Shown here piece by piece: positions 2,283-59,287 of a DNA stretch of 64,000 bases. The position numbers and the translations under genes are program-made. The stretch lies in the IMG/VR virus record IMGVR_UViG_2667527592_000002. One strand, written 5' to 3'. Numbering within the stretch: position 1 is the stretch's first letter; the number at the start of each line of letters is the position of its first letter. Source of the stretch: a virus (Duplodnaviria > Heunggongvirae > Uroviricota > Caudoviricetes). The notes beneath the pieces are model-generated. The model did not search any database. It was not told the origin of the DNA and saw nothing but the letters and a program-made list of their open reading frames with translations.

Positions 2283-3643
2283 GTCTGGTTAATTGGGAGG
2301 AGCACCGCGCCCGCTTTATAGCGTTGCGTGAAGAAAAAGGGATCACTGTAAAGGAATACTGTGAGGAGCATGGCCTTAGCTTCAATACAGCCAGAAAGCA
2401 TCTCAATATGAAAAAAAATGAGGTGCGGTCGCAGGTAAAGACAACAAAAAAAAGCACCAAATCACCTGAAAAAAAACGGGCGGGAAGAGCAACAAAAAAG
2501 CTGGAAGAGGGTGCAGAAAAAACAAAATTTACAGAAATTGACAATTCGCAGGGTGCAGGTTCTTTCCGAAGTATGCCAAGAAAGAAAACTTCGGATCATG
2601 AAAGTAATTCCAATAATAACAATGAGATAAAAGAATCTGTCAGGAGATCATTGCGCGAAAAAATGGCGAAAATGATCCCCGAAGAAGATAAAAGCGCCCC
2701 AAAAATTGAGGGATCTTCAGCAATGATCCCTGGCGGTGCTGTGCAACGTGCCACATTGCCCACTACGAATGTGGCTCGCGACATGATGAAGAACGGCGCA
2801 GAAGAACACCTGCGGTTAGCAATTCAAATGGCGCAAGAGCGCGCACTTCAGTATCAAAGCATTGTTGATCAGGAGGCCGAACGTCTACAGGCGGAAATAG
2901 ACGCCTTGGGCGATAAAGAGCCAGAAGGAATGCACCCTGGGCAGCGCCTTCTCGGTCTAATCAGTGACGCGGCCTACTACATGAATGATTTTATCAGTAG
3001 GTTGGCAGCTATATATCAGTCCGAACAAAAGCTGCGACAGGGGGATGAAAAGCTTCGTCAGAGCGCTCGCCAGCAAGCATTCAAAGAGGCTGAGGCCAGA
3101 GAAAAACTCGAATTAGCACGCCTACAGGCCGAACAGCGTGGCAAAGAGATTGAATATCGCATTGGCGCTGACGCACGCGCTGCCAGAGTTATCGCCGCCG
3201 CTATACGTATGCGTGAGCGCGAGGAACTGGATGATATCGGTGTTGCTGAATACATCGAGCGCCAGGGGGTCAGCGTCCCGGCTATCCTCGCGGCGCGCGC
3301 GGCGAAAGCTATCACTCTTCTCGAACCACCTGTTTCTGACGTCAATGATGTTGATGATGAACAGCTGGACAAAGAGGCAAGGGAGTTTGCAACGCTTCAG
3401 GCTAACCATCCGCAATGGCTGGCAGAGCGCCGGGCGGATGTGGCAACCATTGTTGAAGAATTGGGGTGCGGAGATTACGACCGCAATGGCGAGCGTAAAG
3501 CTGGAGAATTCGAGGCCAGCGACGAAGAGCTGGATATTGACCCTTCGGCAACGGCTGAAATTTACGGTGATTATGATGCATCTGATGCAGGGTATGACGC
3601 CGGAGATGATGATATCGCGATAGAACCGCCGGAGGATGATTAA
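2279..3643 (+). CDS. putative terminase small subunit (PacA-like), acidic C-terminus
   Basis: Immediately upstream of and overlapping the large terminase; N-terminal HTH-like segment; internal GATC cluster; assignment by position, not by recognised sequence. Confidence 0.45.
   Translation: MSLVNWEEHRARFIALREEKGITVKEYCEEHGLSFNTARKHLNMKKNEVRSQVKTTKKSTKSPEKKRAGRATKKLEEGAEKTKFTEIDNSQGAGSFRSMPRKKTSDHESNSNNNNEIKESVRRSLREKMAKMIPEEDKSAPKIEGSSAMIPGGAVQRATLPTTNVARDMMKNGAEEHLRLAIQMAQERALQYQSIVDQEAERLQAEIDALGDKEPEGMHPGQRLLGLISDAAYYMNDFISRLAAIYQSEQKLRQGDEKLRQSARQQAFKEAEAREKLELARLQAEQRGKEIEYRIGADARAARVIAAAIRMREREELDDIGVAEYIERQGVSVPAILAARAAKAITLLEPPVSDVNDVDDEQLDKEAREFATLQANHPQWLAERRADVATIVEELGCGDYDRNGERKAGEFEASDEELDIDPSATAEIYGDYDASDAGYDAGDDDIAIEPPEDD
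2594..2728. other. GATC cluster (5 sites in 135 bp), candidate pac-type packaging site
   Basis: GATC at 2594, 2646, 2674, 2712, 2725, mostly as TGATC[CT] hexamers; P1 pac lies within pacA and is built from Dam-methylated TGATC[AG] hexamers. Confidence 0.35.
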
Positions 3644-5151
3644 TGGCTGGCGGGCGCAAGATTAAATGCGTCACCAGCGATCCACGCTGGCGCGATATGG
3701 TAATCAAATACCGCTACAACTTTACCCAGGCTGTTGTCGATATTTTTGGGATGTTCCCCTCCCACCAGCAGCAGCAGATCATTCAGTCAGTGCAGGAAAC
3801 GGGGAGTAGGACGACCGTCACGTCCGGACACGGAACGGGGAAGTCGTCCCTTACCGCGATGTTGCTGTTGATTTTTATGATCCTGTTCCCCGATGCCCGT
3901 GTCATCATTGTTGCTAACAAGATAGGCCAGGTAAAAACAGGCGTATTCAAATACGTTAAACAGTATTGGGCGAATGCAGTTAAGCGTCATGGGTGGTTGC
4001 AGACCTATTTTGTCCTCTCTGACACCATGTTTTATGAGCGCTCCCGTAAGGGGATTTGGGAAGTTCTCTGCAAAGGTTATCGACTCGGCAACGAAGAAGC
4101 GCTGGCGGGGGAACACGCGGCACATTTGCTTCTAATTCTGGACGAAGCATCTGGTATATCTGATAAGGCGATCGGCGTAATGACCGGTGCTCTTACTGAA
4201 GAAGATAACCGGATGTTGATGCTATCCCAGCCAACAAGGCCAAGTGGTTATTTCTACGATTCGCACCATTCTCAAGCAAAAACCCCAGACAACCCGAAAG
4301 GGATCTGGACAGCAATTGTTCTTAACTCGGAAGAATCACCGTTCGTCACACCACAATTCATCAAGCAGAAGCTTCTGGAATATGGCGGGCGCGATTCTAT
4401 TGAGTACATGGTCAAGGTGCTTGGTCAGTTCCCACGAGAAATTAACGGCTATTTGCTTGGTCGTGATGAATGCGATCGCGCTGCTCGCCGCAAGGTGTTG
4501 TTGGAGAAAAACTGGGGATGGGTGGCAACGGCTGACGTTGGTAATGGGCGAGATAAGTCGGTCCTCAACATCTGCAAAGTATCTGGTCACAGGGATAAGC
4601 GGCGCGTTGTTAACTTTAAGGTAATGGAGATGCCTGGCACTATGGACCCATTGGCCTTTGCTGACTTCATATATAACGAATGTACGCCGGAAAAATACCC
4701 GAATATAACAATCGCGGTTGATGCTGATGGTTTTGGTTCTGATACGTGTGCGCAGTTGGTGCGTCGTGGTGCGAACCCGGTACGTATTCGGTGGGGAAAA
4801 CCCATGTTTGCGAACAAAGACAGGGAGCGATTTGTTAATCAGCGTGCCTACGCAAATATTATGGCGCGTGATGCCATAAAGTCAGGGCGTATGCGGATAG
4901 ACAGTGACCCTAAAACGGCAGAGCAAGCGTCAAAAATCCCCTTTTTACTGAATGAAGAAGGGAAAATGGCGATGATGCGCAAAGAGCACATGCGGCAAAA
5001 GCTAAACATCAAATCGCCTGACCGATGGGATACCTACTGCTTCACTATGCTGGTGGACTATGTGCCTGCTAATGAAGATATTGGTGCCGAAATGGCAACT
5101 TTCCGAGATCAGGTTCTGGCGGATATCGAAATGCCGGATCTGGATATATAA
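3643..5151 (+). CDS. terminase large subunit (PacB-like)
   Basis: 502 aa; Walker A SGHGTGKS, Walker B LLLILDEAS, C-terminal acidic nuclease-like region; start overlaps pacA stop. Confidence 0.7.
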   Translation: MAGGRKIKCVTSDPRWRDMVIKYRYNFTQAVVDIFGMFPSHQQQQIIQSVQETGSRTTVTSGHGTGKSSLTAMLLLIFMILFPDARVIIVANKIGQVKTGVFKYVKQYWANAVKRHGWLQTYFVLSDTMFYERSRKGIWEVLCKGYRLGNEEALAGEHAAHLLLILDEASGISDKAIGVMTGALTEEDNRMLMLSQPTRPSGYFYDSHHSQAKTPDNPKGIWTAIVLNSEESPFVTPQFIKQKLLEYGGRDSIEYMVKVLGQFPREINGYLLGRDECDRAARRKVLLEKNWGWVATADVGNGRDKSVLNICKVSGHRDKRRVVNFKVMEMPGTMDPLAFADFIYNECTPEKYPNITIAVDADGFGSDTCAQLVRRGANPVRIRWGKPMFANKDRERFVNQRAYANIMARDAIKSGRMRIDSDPKTAEQASKIPFLLNEEGKMAMMRKEHMRQKLNIKSPDRWDTYCFTMLVDYVPANEDIGAEMATFRDQVLADIEMPDLDI

Positions 5152-25010: not shown

Positions 25011-25326
25011 AGTTGAATTGAAAATTTCTCCGATGTACATTCACTACCGATTGGCACACCGGTCAACTTTTTGAGACAAACTATTTAGTTTTTCGTATTA
25101 TTGCCGCCGCCATACCTATGGCGGTGCAATATAGGTGGCTGAAAAGCCCCCGTTGACTCACGGTGTTCCAGCCTTTATTGCGCCGCCACCAGACCGTGGA
25201 ACAGTCGATGGCGGCTCCGAAAGCAAGGAGTCACTACACTATGAACAACTACAGTCTTTTCCCATCACTCGTCGTCCACCACTCACGCGATAATCTGCAT
25301 TCTTTACTCGCGCTGGGGGTGTCAAA

Positions 25327-25494: not shown

Positions 25495-25597
25495 AATACT
25501 GACTGTTGCGCCCTGGCATTATCGTGGGGTATATTTCTACGGCACCTTAGAAAAACGGGTGCCGGGATTGGAACCCCGGATAATGCAAAAGGCGACA

Positions 25598-25622
25598 CAG
25601 ACGCCGAAAGCGTCTTTTTTTG
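25598..25622 (+). terminator. rho-independent terminator (GACGC-CGAAA-GCGTC then T7)
   Basis: 5-bp GC-rich stem, 5-nt loop, seven T. Confidence 0.6.
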
Positions 25623-25806
25623 TGTCATGCCATCGCACAGCCATACGTAGCGTTTAGCTCAGAGATCAATGGTAGTGCTGGCTGGGCTGCCGAAAGGCAG
25701 GCCGGTTCCCTTTTGCGCCGGTAGTTCCAACCCAGTCAGTGCTACCGCCATTGAGATTGGAACCTCACGCGGTAGCTCCTTAAATTAGCAAAAGGAGGCT
25801 GCCAAT
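25623..25806 (+). ncRNA. candidate structured regulatory RNA (immI/c4-like position)
   Basis: GAAA-tetraloop hairpin CTGCC-GAAA-GGCAG; repeats CGGTAGTTCC / CGGTAGCTCC; inverted GTTCCAA / TTGGAAC; immediately upstream of icd-like RBS. Confidence 0.25.
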
Positions 25807-26022
25807 ATGGCTACTATCCCTACCCCAACTCATTCTGAATTTATCTGGCGTTTCTATTCCTGCCAAAAACACCTGTATATCTGCGTAATGGCTGCTACCG
25901 AAGCAGAAGCTCGTTCATACCTTCCTGAAGAACCCTGCATTTTTGCCGCACGCTTCACTCTTGATGCGATGGAGATCCTCAATTACTGGAATCTGCCGAT
26001 GAACTGCGTGGAGGTGCACTGA
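25807..26022 (+). CDS. small protein overlapping antirepressor start (Icd-like position, 71 aa)
   Basis: Strong RBS AAGGAGG; stop overlaps next start (TGATG). Confidence 0.45.
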   Translation: MATIPTPTHSEFIWRFYSCQKHLYICVMAATEAEARSYLPEEPCIFAARFTLDAMEILNYWNLPMNCVEVH

Positions 26023-26963
26023 TGAATCTGCCCATCTCTCGCAAAGCGACAATGACCAGTATTGAGATCGCGAAACTGGTGGGAAGTCGTCACTCTGATG
26101 TTAAACGCAGCATCGAAAGACTTGTTGCTAAAGGTGTTATCCAACATACGCCATTGGCTACAGTTGAGAATAATCAATCACTTAGCCCTAATAAATACAC
26201 AAAAGCCTATGTCTTCGAAGGCGAACAAGGCAAACGAGACAGTATCATTGTCGTCGCACAGCTCTCTCCGGAATTCACCGCCCGGCTGGTGGACCGCTGG
26301 CGCGAACTGGAGAATGCCAGGGGACCGTTAAAATCAAAAGCCGAAATCCTGGCTGAAATGGCGCAAATGCATCTTGAGCATGAACGCCGGATCAACGCCG
26401 TAAATGCCCAGGTAGCCGAGGTATCAGCACAAGTATCGATGGTTGCTGAAACACTCGAGCAAATAAAGAAAGGCAATATTCCGGAAGGCTACATTGGCTA
26501 CCGCCAGCTGGCGGCGAAATGCGGCCTGACTGAAGCCAAATGCCGAAACCTGGTCAACGCTTACCGGATTCCCACCGATACGCATGAGTTTTTAACTCCA
26601 GATGGTTTGCTTGCGCGACGCTCCATTGTGGCCCTGGCCCCCTTCCGGAAAGCCTTTAAGCAGGTGATGTCGGAGGCAGAACCACGCAATAAACGCTGGT
26701 ATCATCCAAAGATGGGGATGTTTCAGGCAATCCACCATCCTGTGCCTGAAAGCCCAAAGGATAATCTGTCACTACATACCGCCAGAGAGAAGATCAGGAC
26801 TGGATACGCAACAGTGTGTCGTCGTTCTTCCTGGCCTGAAGGTGTATGGGTATGGCCCGAAGGTGGATCACGAAAGCACTGGCGCACCATCCGGGACGGA
26901 AAAATCCATGCTATTGATTTAGCTCCAAAGGATGTTATTGCTATGGACTGGATTGTTAGTTAA
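26022..26963 (+). CDS. Rha-family phage regulatory protein / antirepressor-like
   Basis: N-terminal TSIEIAKLVGSRHSDVKRSIERL matches Rha-domain pattern; 313 aa. Confidence 0.7.
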   Translation: MNLPISRKATMTSIEIAKLVGSRHSDVKRSIERLVAKGVIQHTPLATVENNQSLSPNKYTKAYVFEGEQGKRDSIIVVAQLSPEFTARLVDRWRELENARGPLKSKAEILAEMAQMHLEHERRINAVNAQVAEVSAQVSMVAETLEQIKKGNIPEGYIGYRQLAAKCGLTEAKCRNLVNAYRIPTDTHEFLTPDGLLARRSIVALAPFRKAFKQVMSEAEPRNKRWYHPKMGMFQAIHHPVPESPKDNLSLHTAREKIRTGYATVCRRSSWPEGVWVWPEGGSRKHWRTIRDGKIHAIDLAPKDVIAMDWIVS

Positions 26964-27022: not shown

Positions 27023-27334
27023 ATGAAAAAAATAGATTTCACTTATTCTGCCGCCACAATCCAGCGACGTTTCAGTCTCATAAGGGAAGTGGAACTATCA
27101 AAAAACTTGTATCAAATTCTACTGGATGAAGAGTTTTCACTGATGGTTATAGCAGAAAAATTAGCTATGCCGAACGACCGGCACAAGGTCATAGCCAGCC
27201 TCGATCTGGTGACAAACAGATACTGGGAGAAAGAGGAACTACATGAGGCGGGAGTAATTCGTGACCTGATGGAGAATTCCGTTCCCCGCCGCTATCGTGC
27301 AGGGAACGGCATCTCCGTGGTTAAAGGTGTTTAA
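27023..27334 (+). CDS. hypothetical protein (103 aa)
   Basis: ORF track. Confidence 0.4.
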   Translation: MKKIDFTYSAATIQRRFSLIREVELSKNLYQILLDEEFSLMVIAEKLAMPNDRHKVIASLDLVTNRYWEKEELHEAGVIRDLMENSVPRRYRAGNGISVVKGV

Positions 27335-27723
27335 AGCTCACCTGCGCGCTGTTTTTCAAGCACAGATTTAACATTTGGCGCTTTCCCTTTAAAAGAATGG
27401 AAAGTGCCACATTTTTCTGTTTTAACCTCGCGCAGAGCTTCGCCATCGGCGTTCTGCCATTGATGGGATAATGTCATATCACCGCGAGAAGGAACATCCA
27501 GCGAGTACAGCGTGTAAGTTCCCCCCATCTCCGCATACTCCTGGAACACATAGCTCATTACGTCAGATTCAGTTTTTCGGTGTGCGTTATCAACCTTATT
27601 CCCATTCAGAAATATGGCATCTGGATAGATTTTTATATCAAACCGACCGCACTTAACTTGTAAATTTCCGGCGCTCGCGATCAAAGGGAAAGACGCCAGT
27701 AAAGCAATAGCCAATCTTTTCAA
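27331..27723 (-). CDS. secreted protein with signal peptide (130 aa)
   Basis: MKRLAIALLASFPLIASA signal-like N-terminus. Confidence 0.5.
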   Translation of the reverse strand: MKRLAIALLASFPLIASAGNLQVKCGRFDIKIYPDAIFLNGNKVDNAHRKTESDVMSYVFQEYAEMGGTYTLYSLDVPSRGDMTLSHQWQNADGEALREVKTEKCGTFHSFKGKAPNVKSVLEKQRAGEL

Positions 27724-27743
27724 TTCTGCCTCCGCTGCGTAAC

Positions 27744-28367
27744 TTATTGCCCGTATTTTTTACACCATTGCTCTGCCATTTGTTTGGCTAAAGGCCCGGC
27801 TACTGCACTGTATTCTGCTGTTTTACTTTGCACACATGAAGCAGATGGTTTTTTATTTCGCTGCTCGGTTAGTTTGCGCTCATAAGCCATCATGCTATCG
27901 AACCCGGCAATATCACTTTGGCGAAGCATTCCCTTTTTAACCAAAAATTGCTGCCCCTCTGGCACCAACGCAAGCATAAAAAGTGGTTGCAATAACTCAC
28001 CTAATCCTTGCTGGCGATACACTTCGAATTGCTGCCATCCCTGACTTAATCTGGAAAGAGTATCTTTGGTTGAATAACCTGTTTTTGTTATAGCTTTGTC
28101 CGTCAGATATGCTGTATATGCAAAAACGCAAAAGTCAGTTTTACCAATAAACTGAGTTCCAACAGGCCGTAATGGAATGCCCTCCCTCTTGCAAAAGTCC
28201 ATAATTGCCGCTTGTGAATGATCCCCACCAGCGTTATTCATAACCTGCTGCCCTGCCCTGAATTGTGCAGGTAACGCAGTTGCATTGGCAGTATTAACAG
28301 ATACGCATCCCAACATAGCCGCGAGCGCGGCCCCTAAAACCCTTAACTTCACTACACCATCCTTCAT
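27744..28367 (-). CDS. secreted/periplasmic protein with signal peptide (207 aa)
   Basis: Hydrophobic N-terminus ending ANA; ORF track. Confidence 0.5.
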   Translation of the reverse strand: MKDGVVKLRVLGAALAAMLGCVSVNTANATALPAQFRAGQQVMNNAGGDHSQAAIMDFCKREGIPLRPVGTQFIGKTDFCVFAYTAYLTDKAITKTGYSTKDTLSRLSQGWQQFEVYRQQGLGELLQPLFMLALVPEGQQFLVKKGMLRQSDIAGFDSMMAYERKLTEQRNKKPSASCVQSKTAEYSAVAGPLAKQMAEQWCKKYGQ

Positions 28368-28582
28368 GTAAACAAAATGAAGTTTTATGTTATAAAAACA
28401 ATTAACTACATCAACATGATTTAGGCCAAATTTCGGTCAAAAAATAAAATCCACAAAAAGTGGTTGACACTATTTTGGAAATCACAAACTACACATAATC
28501 CATCGCGCTAACGGCTCCCGTTGAAGGTTCTTTTGACGATTAACTTTCAGCCGAAGCGCGGTAGGGAGTCATAACGCCAAAG

Positions 28583-28609
28583 CAGGCCGCCATGTGCGGC
28601 CTTTTTTTG
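28583..28609 (+). terminator. rho-independent terminator-like hairpin directly upstream of a gene
   Basis: GGCCGC-CATGT-GCGGCC followed by TTTTTTT; start codon of next gene 27 nt downstream. Confidence 0.55.
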
Positions 28610-28635
28610 TATCCGTCATCCGTGAAGGAAGGACA

Positions 28636-29289
28636 ATGGAAAAGATCGCAATATTCAGCCTGACCACCAGCAAGCCTCAAATGCTCACTGCAATACTGAA
28701 AGACGGTGCTCTCATTATTAACGAAGTAAAACCCCTTCCCGCGTCAGCATTGGAGCAAAAGCAAAAAATTCCTCCAGCTATAGCAGCCCTGCGGAAAAGC
28801 AAATTTAAGGTACTGGTAGACGAAATTACGCCAACGATCTCCGCTGGCACCGGAGCAAGCCAGGTGACTCTCAAGACCCGTCATGCCGATGGCAGAGCAG
28901 CAATCATCGTCGGGATGGAAAGATACAGAGAGTTAAAACTCCAGAAGCTATTATCCCTGCCGCAAAATAACAAAGGTGCTTTCGAAATCCCCGACTCTAT
29001 CGTTGATACCGAATACAACGGTAACGGAGAAGAAGTCTACAGGGTGAACTGGCAGGATATCAGGCCGGAGCATATTCTGATGATCCTGTGTTGCTACGCG
29101 ACCGTATACCAAAACGTTGCCAGTGCAGATTACGTAGAGCAGATGACCGGGACAGTCGAGAAAGAGCAAAAAACAAGCATACTCGCTTCGTTCCTTTCCA
29201 TTATTGGGCATGAAAAAGTTAAAGCAGGCACCTCCCAGCCAAAGTCACTGGCTGGGAAAGAAGTTGATGAAGATACCGTGATACTTTGA
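28636..29289 (+). CDS. hypothetical protein (217 aa)
   Basis: ATG 28636 after GAAGGAAGG RBS; the track's GTG 28594 start lies inside the terminator hairpin. Confidence 0.55.
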   Translation: MEKIAIFSLTTSKPQMLTAILKDGALIINEVKPLPASALEQKQKIPPAIAALRKSKFKVLVDEITPTISAGTGASQVTLKTRHADGRAAIIVGMERYRELKLQKLLSLPQNNKGAFEIPDSIVDTEYNGNGEEVYRVNWQDIRPEHILMILCCYATVYQNVASADYVEQMTGTVEKEQKTSILASFLSIIGHEKVKAGTSQPKSLAGKEVDEDTVIL

Positions 29290-29424
29290 TCACATTAGTA
29301 GCTTTGTTAACTCCCTCAATACCAGGTAGAAGAGTAACAAAAATATTGACGCGAGTATTTGAGTGGTCAATGAAGCGTTCATAAACAGATCAATTAGCAT
29401 TAATAATTCGAAGATAACATCCAT
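29290..29424 (-). CDS. small hydrophobic protein (44 aa), type-I-toxin-like
   Basis: Hand-translated MDVIFELLMLIDLFMNASLTTQILASIFLLLFYLVLRELTKLLM; GGAG 8 nt upstream; abuts stop of convergent gene. Confidence 0.35.
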   Translation of the reverse strand: MDVIFELLMLIDLFMNASLTTQILASIFLLLFYLVLRELTKLLM

Positions 29425-29617
29425 GTCATTCACTCCGTTTAATTTTTAATCTAATGCCAGCAAAGGAAGCTGGCCCCCGCATAAAGATTAATGAAAGTCA
29501 CTTGTCACCAGTGAGGGGATTTATGAACCACATCCCCCTGAACTGGTGGCCTGTCTGTTTCTCGCATTTCACACCCTGCATACAGTTTCCCCCAGGTTAT
29601 GACTGAGAGGCTTTGTT

Positions 29618-55504: not shown

Positions 55505-58500
55505 ATGGATATCAGCCCGTTAGCGACGTTGAACAATTACCGCAATGGCGAGCACTCCATATGTCAAAAGCCCTGGAAGAAAAATACAAAGCTCAAGCCG
55601 GGAAACGTTGATCGCGCTGGTAAAAGAGAGGTTATTTTGAAAGAAAATAAAGACCGTATCGCAATAATTGACGCTATTCAGGAAGCGAGCACAAACGAAC
55701 TTAAAGCTCTTGCTGAGGTAAAAGACGCCATTCTTTCTGGGGCAAGCACCATAACTCAACAGGACGAAAGGCAAGGCAGAGTTAGCAACAGACTATCACG
55801 CAGGCGTAAAGACTACGAGCAAAGTACATCTGATAGCGTTAGAGATGTCCAAACTAACCCATATAAAAAACGTCTCCCTGCTAAAAAGGAGAGGGCACCG
55901 ATAAACCAAACCGTGGACCGCTCTATCGTTGCAACGAACACACCAGAAAGTGTTCGTTCTGTGCAATCACGTCAGAACATCCGAAAATCGGACGGTTCTA
56001 TACCGGTAGCTGCTAATTCAACTCCTCTTGAACCACAATCCCCCCAAAGTCTAAAAGGCCCGCTGCGGGATAGTAATGGACGTTTTGTATCCCAGAAAAG
56101 CAATGAGGATGTAGCCAGAAAAAAAGAACTGCAGAACGCACGTAAAGCCGACGCAAAATTACAAGCTGGCTTTCTCAGAAAGCTGGGTTCCATTATGGGG
56201 GTAGATGGCAATCAGTCTTCCAGTGAAGAGTCTTTAACAAATGCAGCTGGTGTCGGTGCTGGTGGGCCGTTATGGATGGCAGCTCGTGGCATGTACGACA
56301 TAACTAAAGAGATCACAGGTAAAGCAGAATCTCTTAAAGAATGGGTAGAAAAGGGGAAAAAAGAAACATCAACCTCGAAAGCGATATCACCAGTAATTAC
56401 TTATCCGGCGGCGGTGAATTCTCAAAAAGCAACATCTGCAAAAGCGTTCAATAACGCTGTTGAGACAAAATCCGCACAAGCAGTAGAAGAGCAAACCAAA
56501 ATCCTTCAGACCAATGACAACAAAATAATTGATGGTCTGGAAAATGTTTCTGACGAGATAGTTAAGCTTCGGAAATCAGTGTCTTCTGGAAATAAGTTCG
56601 GCTTAAGTGATCTCTGGAAAAATCGAGCAAGCAGAAGAAATAAAATCAATATTGGTGATCAGACGGGAAAAAATAAACGGAACAAATCGAAAAGGAAAGG
56701 CCGCAATCTTGGGAAAAAAGCACTCTCCGCTGGCGAAAAAGTTGCTGCCGGTAGCGCTGCGGCTGGCACTGGTGTCGGAGCAGCAAAAGTAGTTAAAAAT
56801 AAGATCAGCAAACCCAAAGATGTAAGCACTATCAGCGATACATCAAAGGGGATTGCAAAGGAAACAAAAAATACTGCTAAGGCCGTGAAGTCAGCTGGTG
56901 TTGTGGCTGAAGATGCCACCATTAAAACCGGCGAAGCCATTGCAAAGAAAAAAACTGAATCTGTAGCCCTCAAAAGTGCAGCAAAAATAGGTGTTAAATC
57001 AGCAGCATCCACAGCGGCAAGAGCGGTCCCTATCATCGGTTCGCTGGCAATGGCTGGATATGACGCCATAGATGGTTACACAGATACAGAGGCGCAAAAG
57101 GCAGCCTTTGGTTTAAGTGACGATGATGCTGTATCCGAACAGAAAAAAACGGCTTACGCAACAGCTAATGTGCTCGATATGGGGGGCTTGGTGTCGGGCG
57201 CAACGAACTTGATAGGAAAAGGAATTTCTGCGCTAGGATTTGAAAGAGCAGGTGAAAAACTTCAGAATTTTGATACCGGAGATATTGCTCGTGGTGTTAA
57301 CGGCGCGGTAGATATCACCAAATCTGTTTTTGGTAGCCTTAAGGATACATTTTTATCCACTGACGAAAACACGAAACAAGTAAAAAAAGCTGTTGAAGAC
57401 GGCACCAAAAAAACTGTCGATGCGATTCATTCTCTAGGTGAACAATTACAAGGTGGGCGTAATGGCGAGGATGGAGTTGGTGAGCACGGATATACTTCTC
57501 CAACTGAATTTAGTGCACCTGCCAACAACACCATTGCAGCGGATCTGAATATTGGCGGCAGCAACGCTAAAAACCGCAATTACCGAAATAATAATCTCGG
57601 CAATCTTGTTTTTGCCAACCAGGAAGGGGCGACGCTGGAATCGCCAAATGCAAAAGGGGAACAACGTTTTGCGCGATTTAACACACCTGAAGAAGGGATC
57701 AGGGCACTGGCAAACCAGGTTTCCAGCTATTACAACGGCACCAGTGCCGCAGCGGGATATCAGAAGTTACAGACGGTATCCAGCATCATTTCAAAATGGG
57801 CACCGCCAAATGAGAACAATACTAACCAATATATTGATAACGTCAGTAAATATCTTGGTGTATCGCCTAATGAAAAAATAGATGTCAGCAACCCAGAGGT
57901 TATGACGCAATTAGTTCGTGCAATTGCGACGAAAGAAGGCGGAAATCCGGCAGTTAATAATGAGTTCATTAAGAATGCACTTGGAGCATTTAACACAAAC
58001 ACTGGTCGATGGGAGGGACAATTCTCTGACGAAACATTGGCGCGGATTAATAAAATTCAGAAAGAAAATGGTGGTCAGCTAATTGCCCGCGATTCGCAAT
58101 ATAGTGTTGGTCGCAAGGTAAAATATGCTAATGGAAAATCTCCAGCTCAACCAGTTTTGAATGCCGTTCCGACAGCAACACAACAGCCAATTGAGGTTGC
58201 ACAACATGCCCAGGCAGTCAAAAAGCCACAAAAAACAGGCAATCAATCGCAACCGATTAATCCAGAGAATGTTGATGTTAATACTGGCTCGCCATCAAGT
58301 CTGCTTGAGAGATTAATCGCTATAAATGACAGCGGGGTAGGTAATTTATTTGGAGGTGCGGCTACCAGCCTTGCTGGTACAAGCCTTGGCCTGATTAAGG
58401 ATTTTGCGTCGGCGACTTCGTTTGGTTCTATATCTTCGCTTTCCGAAAAAGCGAAAGGAATGGATCAGGCTCTTACTGAAAAGATATCCAGCTTAACCGG

Positions 58501-59287
58501 TAAATCTTTTGGATTTCAAAAAGCAAGCCAGGTAACTGATATAAGAGACGCTTTACAAAAAAGACCAAAAGCTGAACGCGATATGCCTTCAGTGGATCTT
58601 CTTTCCGGTGTTTCTTCGGCAAGTGAGAGTGAAAAAATCTCTGTAAACTCAAGGGGGATTCCAGTTTATGACAATGGATACAAGGTAATTGATGGTGAAG
58701 ATAAGGGGGTACTTGGCTCTTTGTTTGACTCGTCATTAACAGGTCTGAAACGTATTAGCTCTGCTGTGTTACCTGCAATTGGCGATAACGTTTCACGACT
58801 TATTGGTGGGGTAGATGGCACTGGCATTGTTAATGATTTGGTTTATCAGGCTACTGGGCAGAACTCAACAATTGCCAGGGCTATTAGCCCGCTTACCAGG
58901 AGCGCCGGTAGTTGGCTGAATAATGGTATTCAACAAACCGCAGATAGCATTAGAGGTATATCAAACGAAGCCAATAATGCCATATTTGGCTCTGCGTCAG
59001 CCGTGCAAGAACCTTTTCTTGCTATGCCACCACAGCTTCCTACTGTAACAGATCTCGCACGAAGCGGAATAAGACAACCATTAACTACTGACACTATAAA
59101 TAACGATCCTGCTATGTTGAAGGCGCTGGATAACATCTGCTCTATCCTGAACGACCTTCTGAATGTGAACAAGAACAATACAAAAGGCGATCCGGATAAG
59201 GTTGTCAAAACATCGCAGCCGCAACCGCGACCACGTGCTAGCACAACTATTAATGACCCGTCGCTGGATGCTCTGCTTGAGGATTAA
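55505..59287 (+). CDS. tail tape-measure-like protein (Sit-like), possible cell-wall hydrolase region
   Basis: 1260 aa, largest ORF, just upstream of baseplate genes; Ala/Gly/Lys-rich repeats; central NRNYRNNNLGNLVF... block. Confidence 0.55.
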   Translation: MDISPLATLNNYRNGEHSICQKPWKKNTKLKPGNVDRAGKREVILKENKDRIAIIDAIQEASTNELKALAEVKDAILSGASTITQQDERQGRVSNRLSRRRKDYEQSTSDSVRDVQTNPYKKRLPAKKERAPINQTVDRSIVATNTPESVRSVQSRQNIRKSDGSIPVAANSTPLEPQSPQSLKGPLRDSNGRFVSQKSNEDVARKKELQNARKADAKLQAGFLRKLGSIMGVDGNQSSSEESLTNAAGVGAGGPLWMAARGMYDITKEITGKAESLKEWVEKGKKETSTSKAISPVITYPAAVNSQKATSAKAFNNAVETKSAQAVEEQTKILQTNDNKIIDGLENVSDEIVKLRKSVSSGNKFGLSDLWKNRASRRNKINIGDQTGKNKRNKSKRKGRNLGKKALSAGEKVAAGSAAAGTGVGAAKVVKNKISKPKDVSTISDTSKGIAKETKNTAKAVKSAGVVAEDATIKTGEAIAKKKTESVALKSAAKIGVKSAASTAARAVPIIGSLAMAGYDAIDGYTDTEAQKAAFGLSDDDAVSEQKKTAYATANVLDMGGLVSGATNLIGKGISALGFERAGEKLQNFDTGDIARGVNGAVDITKSVFGSLKDTFLSTDENTKQVKKAVEDGTKKTVDAIHSLGEQLQGGRNGEDGVGEHGYTSPTEFSAPANNTIAADLNIGGSNAKNRNYRNNNLGNLVFANQEGATLESPNAKGEQRFARFNTPEEGIRALANQVSSYYNGTSAAAGYQKLQTVSSIISKWAPPNENNTNQYIDNVSKYLGVSPNEKIDVSNPEVMTQLVRAIATKEGGNPAVNNEFIKNALGAFNTNTGRWEGQFSDETLARINKIQKENGGQLIARDSQYSVGRKVKYANGKSPAQPVLNAVPTATQQPIEVAQHAQAVKKPQKTGNQSQPINPENVDVNTGSPSSLLERLIAINDSGVGNLFGGAATSLAGTSLGLIKDFASATSFGSISSLSEKAKGMDQALTEKISSLTGKSFGFQKASQVTDIRDALQKRPKAERDMPSVDLLSGVSSASESEKISVNSRGIPVYDNGYKVIDGEDKGVLGSLFDSSLTGLKRISSAVLPAIGDNVSRLIGGVDGTGIVNDLVYQATGQNSTIARAISPLTRSAGSWLNNGIQQTADSIRGISNEANNAIFGSASAVQEPFLAMPPQLPTVTDLARSGIRQPLTTDTINNDPAMLKALDNICSILNDLLNVNKNNTKGDPDKVVKTSQPQPRPRASTTINDPSLDALLED

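Follow-up and report, generated by a model that had tools for sequence, protein, structure and literature searches.

Two putatively exported orphan proteins of a D6-like phage-plasmid form a candidate envelope module of the sim locus

What do two small, apparently exported proteins do for the temperate phage-plasmid that encodes them? The question is raised by a pair of adjacent minus-strand genes in IMG/VR record IMGVR_UViG_2667527592_000002, analysed here as one stretch of 64,000 nucleotides (nt; hereafter, the window). By its sequence, the window is a temperate, D6-like phage-plasmid of the P1 family. The flanks of the pair are 96% identical to Escherichia phage D6, and approximately 131 plasmids of about 90 kb match it; these come from E. 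coli, Salmonella, and Shigella, and nearly all are non-mobilizable. An earlier note on this DNA had pointed to two adjacent open reading frames (ORFs) at 27331-28367, and both are present there:

27744-28352 (GTG start, 202 amino acids [aa]) or to 28367 (ATG start, 207 aa), minus strand: ORF207, the first gene, PHROG 12786
27331-27723, minus strand: ORF130, the second gene, 130 aa, TTG start, PHROG 13864
28281-28352, minus strand: signal-peptide part of ORF207 (MKLRVLGAALAAMLGCVSVNTANA, then TALPA), assigned by rule
27670-27723, minus strand: signal-peptide part of ORF130 (MKRLAIALLASFPLIASA, then GNLQ), assigned by rule; exactly this part is missing from natural fusions

The best reading of our data is that the pair is an envelope module of the sim ("superimmunity") locus, modular in build and new in sequence, drawn from two orphan families. 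That it is an exported, jointly acting, accessory cassette is much more secure than that it has an exclusion function; by analogy, we put the probability that it serves in superinfection exclusion at about 0.5.

Both genes are real and under purifying selection, since the ratio of nonsynonymous to synonymous substitution rates (dN/dS) is low, at 0.08-0.15 for most pairwise comparisons in either gene. One ORF207 pair reaches 0.39, and dS is saturated between ORF207 alleles. At the protein level, ORF207 changes about three times faster than the neighbouring mat gene; compared with plasmid L015, the window is 97% identical in ORF130 and 67% in ORF207. We prefer the GTG at 28352 as the start of ORF207 because an AAGGA Shine-Dalgarno sequence lies 7 nt upstream of it, while the ATG at 28367 has none. 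NCBI records (P0001) begin the gene at the same GTG, and D6 shares this start. ORF130 starts 20 nt downstream of the ORF207 stop codon, with a GGAGG Shine-Dalgarno sequence (27729-27733) 5 nt before its TTG. Given the short gap and this ribosome-binding site, we consider the two genes to be an operon. The non-coding spacers that had been described on both sides of the pair exist only upstream, where about 270 bp separate it from mat; downstream, the stop codons of ORF130 and a pmgF-like gene overlap by 4 nt.

Signal peptides were judged in silico only, by a rule that combines K/R residues, a hydrophobic core (Kyte-Doolittle scale), and an AXA-type cleavage site. As the earlier note had claimed, both proteins are predicted to carry one: each has K/R, a 10-residue core with a mean Kyte-Doolittle value of approximately 2.4, and an AXA-type site, with predicted cleavage between ANA and TALPA in ORF207 and between ASA and GNLQ in ORF130. 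The rule-based check found no later transmembrane segment in either protein. Nearly all full-length homologues, even those at 25-30% identity, show this arrangement, and export of both proteins is well supported in silico. Read from the GTG, the window's ORF207 (ORF202) also fits a PROSITE-like lipobox (AMLG before C16, with Val at +2). The lipobox Cys is Gly in alleles that are 67% identical and is absent from remote members of the family; ORF130 has no lipobox.

Beyond the signal peptides, ORF207-family proteins conserve (in ATG numbering) an LP motif directly behind the signal peptide, C59, C80, GYS(T/Y)xDT at 97-103, P128, G138, and D152. C59 and C80 are found throughout the family, while C178 and C202 occur in the long forms; the ORF130 family conserves C25 and C105. 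The AlphaFold2 (AF2) model of ORF207 is confident (predicted local distance difference test [pLDDT] 83) and all-alpha, with nine helices and disordered residues 1-27. The model of ORF130 has a pLDDT of 64 and is mostly beta.

The statement that neither protein has a recognisable phage function holds at the level of family searches, where the only matches were to PHROGs of unknown function: ORF207 matches PHROG 12786 (E = 2.5e-134, profile positions 1-207) and ORF130 matches PHROG 13864 (E = 2.9e-90, profile positions 1-130). Neither protein matched Pfam, NCBIfam, or PADLOC, with zero matches to PADLOC components at E <= 1, and neither was found by tblastn against 50,697 phage records or by a sequence-profile search of the PDB. 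Both families are small. They comprise 10 (ORF207) and 11 (ORF130) clusters in 5.8 billion proteins, and when 1.84 billion representatives were searched exhaustively with a profile, 21 proteins of the 207 family emerged. Among 185,579 species-representative genomes there was a single match for the 130 family (a Citrobacter contig) and none for the remote 207 subfamily ("AMPANRAEA").

Natural fusions of the two genes link their products functionally. Four were found: P0024 (277 aa), P0027 (281 aa), P0041 (287 aa), and a 277-aa protein of Enterobacter hormaechei p60214CZ_1. In each, a short linker joins a 207-family core to the mature 130-family domain behind it. Hidden Markov model coverage places PHROG 12786 on residues 2-168 and PHROG 13864 on residues 164-276, the latter matching from profile position 15, which indicates that the internal signal peptide has been dropped. 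The fused genes lie at the same place, divergent from mat. By the Rosetta-stone argument, fusions that lack the internal signal peptide indicate that ORF207 and ORF130 act together in one compartment. Unfused, the two genes lie next to each other, ORF207 first, in about 60 plasmids and in 14 of 17 IMG/VR contigs. A Vibrio plasmid typed as conjugative carries a decayed pair, in which one gene lacks its signal peptide and the other is frameshifted.

Comparison with D6-type plasmids reveals that the pair fills an exchangeable interval:

27290-28316, no strand assigned: exchangeable cassette, at background identity to D6-type plasmids; outside it, identity is 96-100%

The left junction, at about 27290, falls in the 3' end of the pmgF-like gene, and the right junction, at about 28316, falls in codons 12-17 of ORF207; the first ~12 codons of ORF207 (to ~28316) are common to D6-type plasmids. 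In this interval, D6-type plasmids carry orf80 and a 273-aa exported protein (orf79 of D6, PHROG 13054), which is homologous to P1 SimB in its N-terminal half and is annotated as a "putative superimmunity accessory function". The slot, the promoter region, and the first ~12 codons are thus shared by orf79 and the pair. In sequence, orf79 is unrelated to both ORF130 and ORF207, and D6 has no 207-like gene. In pS143-4-type plasmids, a homologue of orf79 is the alternative second gene: pS143-4 and IMG/VR contigs L032, L034, and L035 have a 207-family gene followed by the same 273-aa gene (91% identical).

When D6 is aligned with pS143-4, the match runs to "GCGGCTA" (codon 12), breaks off, and is taken up again about 25 nt before the ATG of the 273-aa gene. 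On the evidence of this alignment, D6 is a deletion derivative that has lost the 207-like body and kept only its first ~12 codons. The 298-aa "simB-like" annotation of D6 (L001, NC_050154; 5141-6037) begins at the remnant GTG of the deleted ORF207-like gene, as seen against L016 (2516-3995). Given the deletion, this annotation would be a chimera of the remnant N-terminus and the 273-aa ORF, and D6 probably makes the 273-aa protein instead, which begins with MFFIKNGK and has its own signal peptide.

Across all loci examined, the gene beside mat is always a 207-family gene or its remnant, and the second gene is either ORF130 or a SimB-domain protein. The partner that follows could not be told from the C-terminal type of ORF207. 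When the window is compared with pS143-4, identity is 99% in mat (dS 0.03) and 58% in ORF207, which argues for allele replacement by recombination. The cassette is accessory, as phage D6 and 56 plasmids do not have the pair. PMC6799933 describes simB of pSL26_91 as "substituted by ... uncharacterized hypothetical proteins"; we find that pSL26_91 carries the ORF207/ORF130 pair (H127, H184). The same source, which places divergence both near simB and in sit, prompted us to compare the slot with sit (55505-59287 in the window). Alleles of sit at least 97.5% identical to that of the window accompany both window-type and D6-type slots, and window-type slots accompany both ~99% and ~90% sit alleles. 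This lack of co-variation indicates that the slot reassorts independently.

In complete E. coli genomes, the pair was present at a coverage of at least 80% in 38 of 5,426, mostly on plasmids. Matches in PLSDB number 69 plasmids for the ORF207 family, 67 of which are non-mobilizable phage-plasmids, and 87 for the ORF130 family. The D6-type 273-aa gene is found in 56 plasmids at a coverage of at least 80%, and SimB-type matches occur in approximately 144 further plasmids, mostly P1-like. Intact homologues of the pair extend across Escherichia, Salmonella, Shigella, Enterobacter, and Citrobacter.

The association with SimB is not limited to D6-type plasmids. A 94.8-kb P1-like plasmid of Citrobacter freundii, with DarA and DarB-like genes, encodes the remote 207-family protein P0040. 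Its gene is flanked by those for an exported protein of 123 aa and a protein of 113 aa, the latter 42% identical to P1 SimB (E = 4e-31). This operon lies directly in front of icd and a gene for a KilA-N antirepressor. A second contig has a YfjT-like exported protein, a SimB homologue, and the 207-family protein P0038, again upstream of icd/ant. The position of these operons upstream of icd is that of simA-simB-simC in P1, and all three P1 Sim proteins have signal peptides by the same rule. The additional exported orphans in the sim-like operons of P1-like, Citrobacter-type plasmids are the 123-aa protein (L004, 7609-7980), for which no family was found, and the 150-aa YfjT-like protein (PHROG 3429; L012, 7180-7632). 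They suggest that the sim-like locus gathers varied small envelope proteins.

In the window, the pair lies close to the immI module, with the following neighbours:

25665-25752, plus strand: C4 antisense RNA of the immI module (Rfam RF01695, 76.7 bits)
25807-26022, plus strand: icd, immI module
26022-26963, plus strand: ant, immI module
27023-27334, convergent with the pair: pmgF-like gene, 103 aa, after ant
28353-28635, no strand assigned: intergenic control region from which ORF207 and mat diverge; 94-100% identical to D6 from ~28316 onward
28636-29289, plus strand: mat (maturation control) homologue, the divergent neighbour of ORF207

The local gene order is ref, C4 antisense RNA, icd, ant, the pmgF-like gene, the pair (on the opposite strand), mat, and homologues of P1 genes 26 and 25. 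All D6-like loci examined have mat next to the ORF207-family gene and divergent from it. The pair begins about 370 bp beyond the end of ant, with the pmgF-like gene between them, and is on the side of immI opposite to P1 sim.

The P1 sim operon is the closest known counterpart of the pair. As described in PMC9177967 and PMC2409434, P1 Sim is a processed, exported protein that halts infection after adsorption (Kliem and Dreiseikelmann 1989; Maillou and Dreiseikelmann 1990), and P1 simABC is described as non-essential in PMC10695390. Like the pair, P1 sim is a small accessory operon for exported proteins, not essential for growth, in a P1-family element. It adjoins immI (c4-icd-ant), near which the pair also lies but on the other side; moreover, SimB homologues are co-operonic with 207-family genes in related plasmids. 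The two differ in that P1 sim has three genes instead of two and no detectable homology to the pair, and in that P1 sim is divergent from c4, whereas the pair sits downstream of ant/pmgF and is divergent from mat.

We propose that ORF207 and ORF130 are two Sec-exported envelope proteins that would act together, probably as a complex, and that the pair represents one allelic form of the sim accessory locus of P1-family phages. The ORF207 family would supply the constant first component, and the second would be interchangeable: ORF130 here, the 273-aa SimB-domain protein elsewhere. As shown for P1 Sim, the pair would most likely act in superinfection exclusion, stopping related phages after they have adsorbed and before their DNA has entered. 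The basis for an exclusion function is the allelism of the slot, the repeated association with SimB-domain genes, and the analogy to P1 Sim. Formation of a periplasmic complex, expression from the prophage, and an exclusion activity with its target are what we would infer from this arrangement. A more specific and more tentative possibility is that the ORF207 family is the core of an unrecognised two-component envelope exclusion system of P1/D6-type phage-plasmids, in which a constant all-alpha subunit without known relatives in fold works with, or is fused to, ORF130, SimB, or 273-aa partners, and in which exchange of alleles and partners at a recombination hotspot would set which rival phage-plasmids are excluded. 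The suggestion in the earlier note that the pair is temperate cargo for entry exclusion thus survives in part. The D6-like phage-plasmid context, the predicted export, the accessory status, the slot shared with a simB-like gene, and the co-operons with SimB-domain genes all agree with it; receptor blocking found no support.

Several observations weigh against exclusion. Only simC of P1 has experimental support for exclusion (the two studies cited in PMC9177967 and PMC2409434), and the link drawn here runs through SimB, which PMC6799933 calls a "putative accessory" only. Comparisons of ORF207 and ORF130 with P1 SimA, SimB, and SimC and with the 273-aa protein of D6 detected no similarity, either between sequences or between profiles. 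For SimB, this was tested by hhalign and BLASTP, with the 113-aa protein of L004 as a positive control (E = 4e-31 to P1 SimB); hhalign of A1 and A2 against P1 SimC gave a probability below 1%. A tblastn search of the window with SimC found nothing, and D6-like elements have no simC homologue (PMC6799933). The structure models gave no hint of mechanism: with Foldseek, the ORF207 model had no match in the PDB and BFVD at E < 0.8, and the ORF130 model had only generic beta-meander matches in the PDB, with template modelling (TM) scores < 0.36, a weak negative given its pLDDT of 64. We recognised no consensus sigma-70 promoter upstream of the pair and no occurrence of the P1 C1-operator consensus within the window. 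Lone 207-family genes occur outside recognisable phage-plasmids, on a large plasmid resembling those of enterotoxigenic E. coli (ETEC) and on a chromosomal-looking contig, and lone 130-family genes occur in Citrobacter plasmids. Finally, the injection transglycosylase sit found no support as a target of exclusion, as its alleles do not co-vary with slot type.

One of the lone 207-family genes, on a chromosomal-looking Logan contig (L007), lies beside a gene (2629-4047, minus strand) whose 472-aa product contains ILHEIKH, which resembles an HExxH motif, and has no match in Pfam.

Small envelope proteins of phages and prophages that stop DNA entry or block receptors include T4 Sp and Imm, T5 Llp, phi80/N15 Cor, and TP-J34 Ltp; some of these are lipoproteins. 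The pair resembles them in size and predicted location, and the window allele of ORF207 has a lipobox-like site. It differs in having no counterpart among them by PHROG, Pfam, or fold, and in that the lipobox is not conserved in the 207 family. Those systems are not known to have a two-component, fusion-linked architecture.

Of the alternatives to exclusion, the one that fares best is that the pair is an envelope "moron" that aids the host in some way other than phage exclusion, either as a periplasmic immunity protein or inhibitor directed against toxins that target peptidoglycan (colicins, type VI secretion system [T6SS] effectors, or lysozymes), or as a surface or stress conversion factor. 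Small exported proteins with conserved cysteine pairs would suit such a role, as would a locus that is accessory, allelic, and recombining. The lone 207-family member on the ETEC-like plasmid lies beside Ail/Lom on what is a virulence-type plasmid, another is chromosomal-looking, and the decayed pair persists on the conjugative Vibrio plasmid. However, no inhibitor or immunity family was matched in Pfam, PADLOC, the PDB, or BFVD, the family is found almost only in P1/D6-type phage-plasmids, and it repeatedly keeps company with SimB-domain genes near immI. We regard this explanation as unlikely, though worth serious consideration. Inhibitors of lysozymes and transglycosylases (Ivy, MliC/PliC, PliG) were considered as specific candidates and set aside: there was no Pfam match, and Foldseek found none in the PDB at E < 0.01, with TM < 0.36, the negative for ORF130 being weak.

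The pair could instead serve the element's own lytic cycle in the periplasm, in lysis timing, in the action of the virion transglycosylase or endolysin, or in a role linked to mat. Its genes are always divergent from mat and have a highly conserved control region in common with it, and no promoter of a lysogenic type was recognised. Yet the pair is missing from D6, a viable phage, and from 56 D6-type plasmids, the second gene is freely swapped, and the sit allele does not follow the slot type; the sim genes of the analogous P1 locus are also non-essential. On balance, a lytic-cycle role appears improbable.

A still weaker case can be made for exclusion of conjugative DNA or other mobile elements in place of phages. 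The envelope location and the relative on a plasmid typed as conjugative would fit by inference, but the Vibrio copies are decayed, Pfam gave no TraS/TraT-type similarity, and 67 of 69 carriers are non-mobilizable phage-plasmids, making this highly improbable. That the ORFs are non-functional or decaying hitch-hikers, for which missing annotation and nothing more speaks, is effectively refuted by the dN/dS of 0.08-0.15 in most pairs with dS saturated between alleles, intact homologues in five genera, good Shine-Dalgarno sites on both genes, and the confident model of ORF207 (pLDDT 83).

Several features of the surrounding DNA were also recorded. The control region between the ORF207 start and mat contains a block of approximately 110 nt (28500-28612, plus strand) that is 96-100% identical among D6-like plasmids, in which the flanking genes are only ~75-85% identical; in Enterobacter-type relatives the block is ~80% identical. 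The plus strand folds with an energy of -42.3 kcal/mol (z = -2.9), and the block ends in a GC hairpin and T7 immediately 5' of the mat ribosome-binding site. Enterobacter variants preserve the GC hairpin with changed sequence, and covariation is sparse. The block has no Rfam match; it could be a small RNA or a terminator/attenuator leader of mat. On the other side of mat, the interval before the gene-26 homologue (29290-29617) is a further variable spot (compared with L016, 671-1242, and L017, 659-1230), where several relatives have a HigA/RelE-ParE toxin-antitoxin pair that the window lacks. RNA matches in the immI region lie on the plus strand at 25114-25193, 25542-25620, and 25665-25752. 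Besides the C4 RNA itself, they include an isrK-like Hfq-binding RNA (62.5 bits) and a second C4-like match about 550 nt upstream of the C4 RNA, directly after ref, which scores 40.2 bits and is below the gathering score.

Phage-plasmids like D6 and P1 are frequent in E. coli, Salmonella, and Shigella, and resistance genes are part of their cargo. To our knowledge, the rules by which they co-infect or displace one another are poorly understood, and although P1 Sim was described in the 1980s, we know of no established mechanism for it or roles for SimA and SimB. The locus described here is dimorphic and recombining, with ORF207 as the fixed member and ORF130 or a SimB-domain protein as its partner, and the fusions argue for a complex. 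If the pair is a modular exclusion system, it would provide the first functional context for SimB-type proteins, and a locus of about 1 kb with natural allelic controls is a tractable lead. If its function differs, the pair would still stand as an accessory cassette with clear boundaries, encoding two exported proteins of orphan families.

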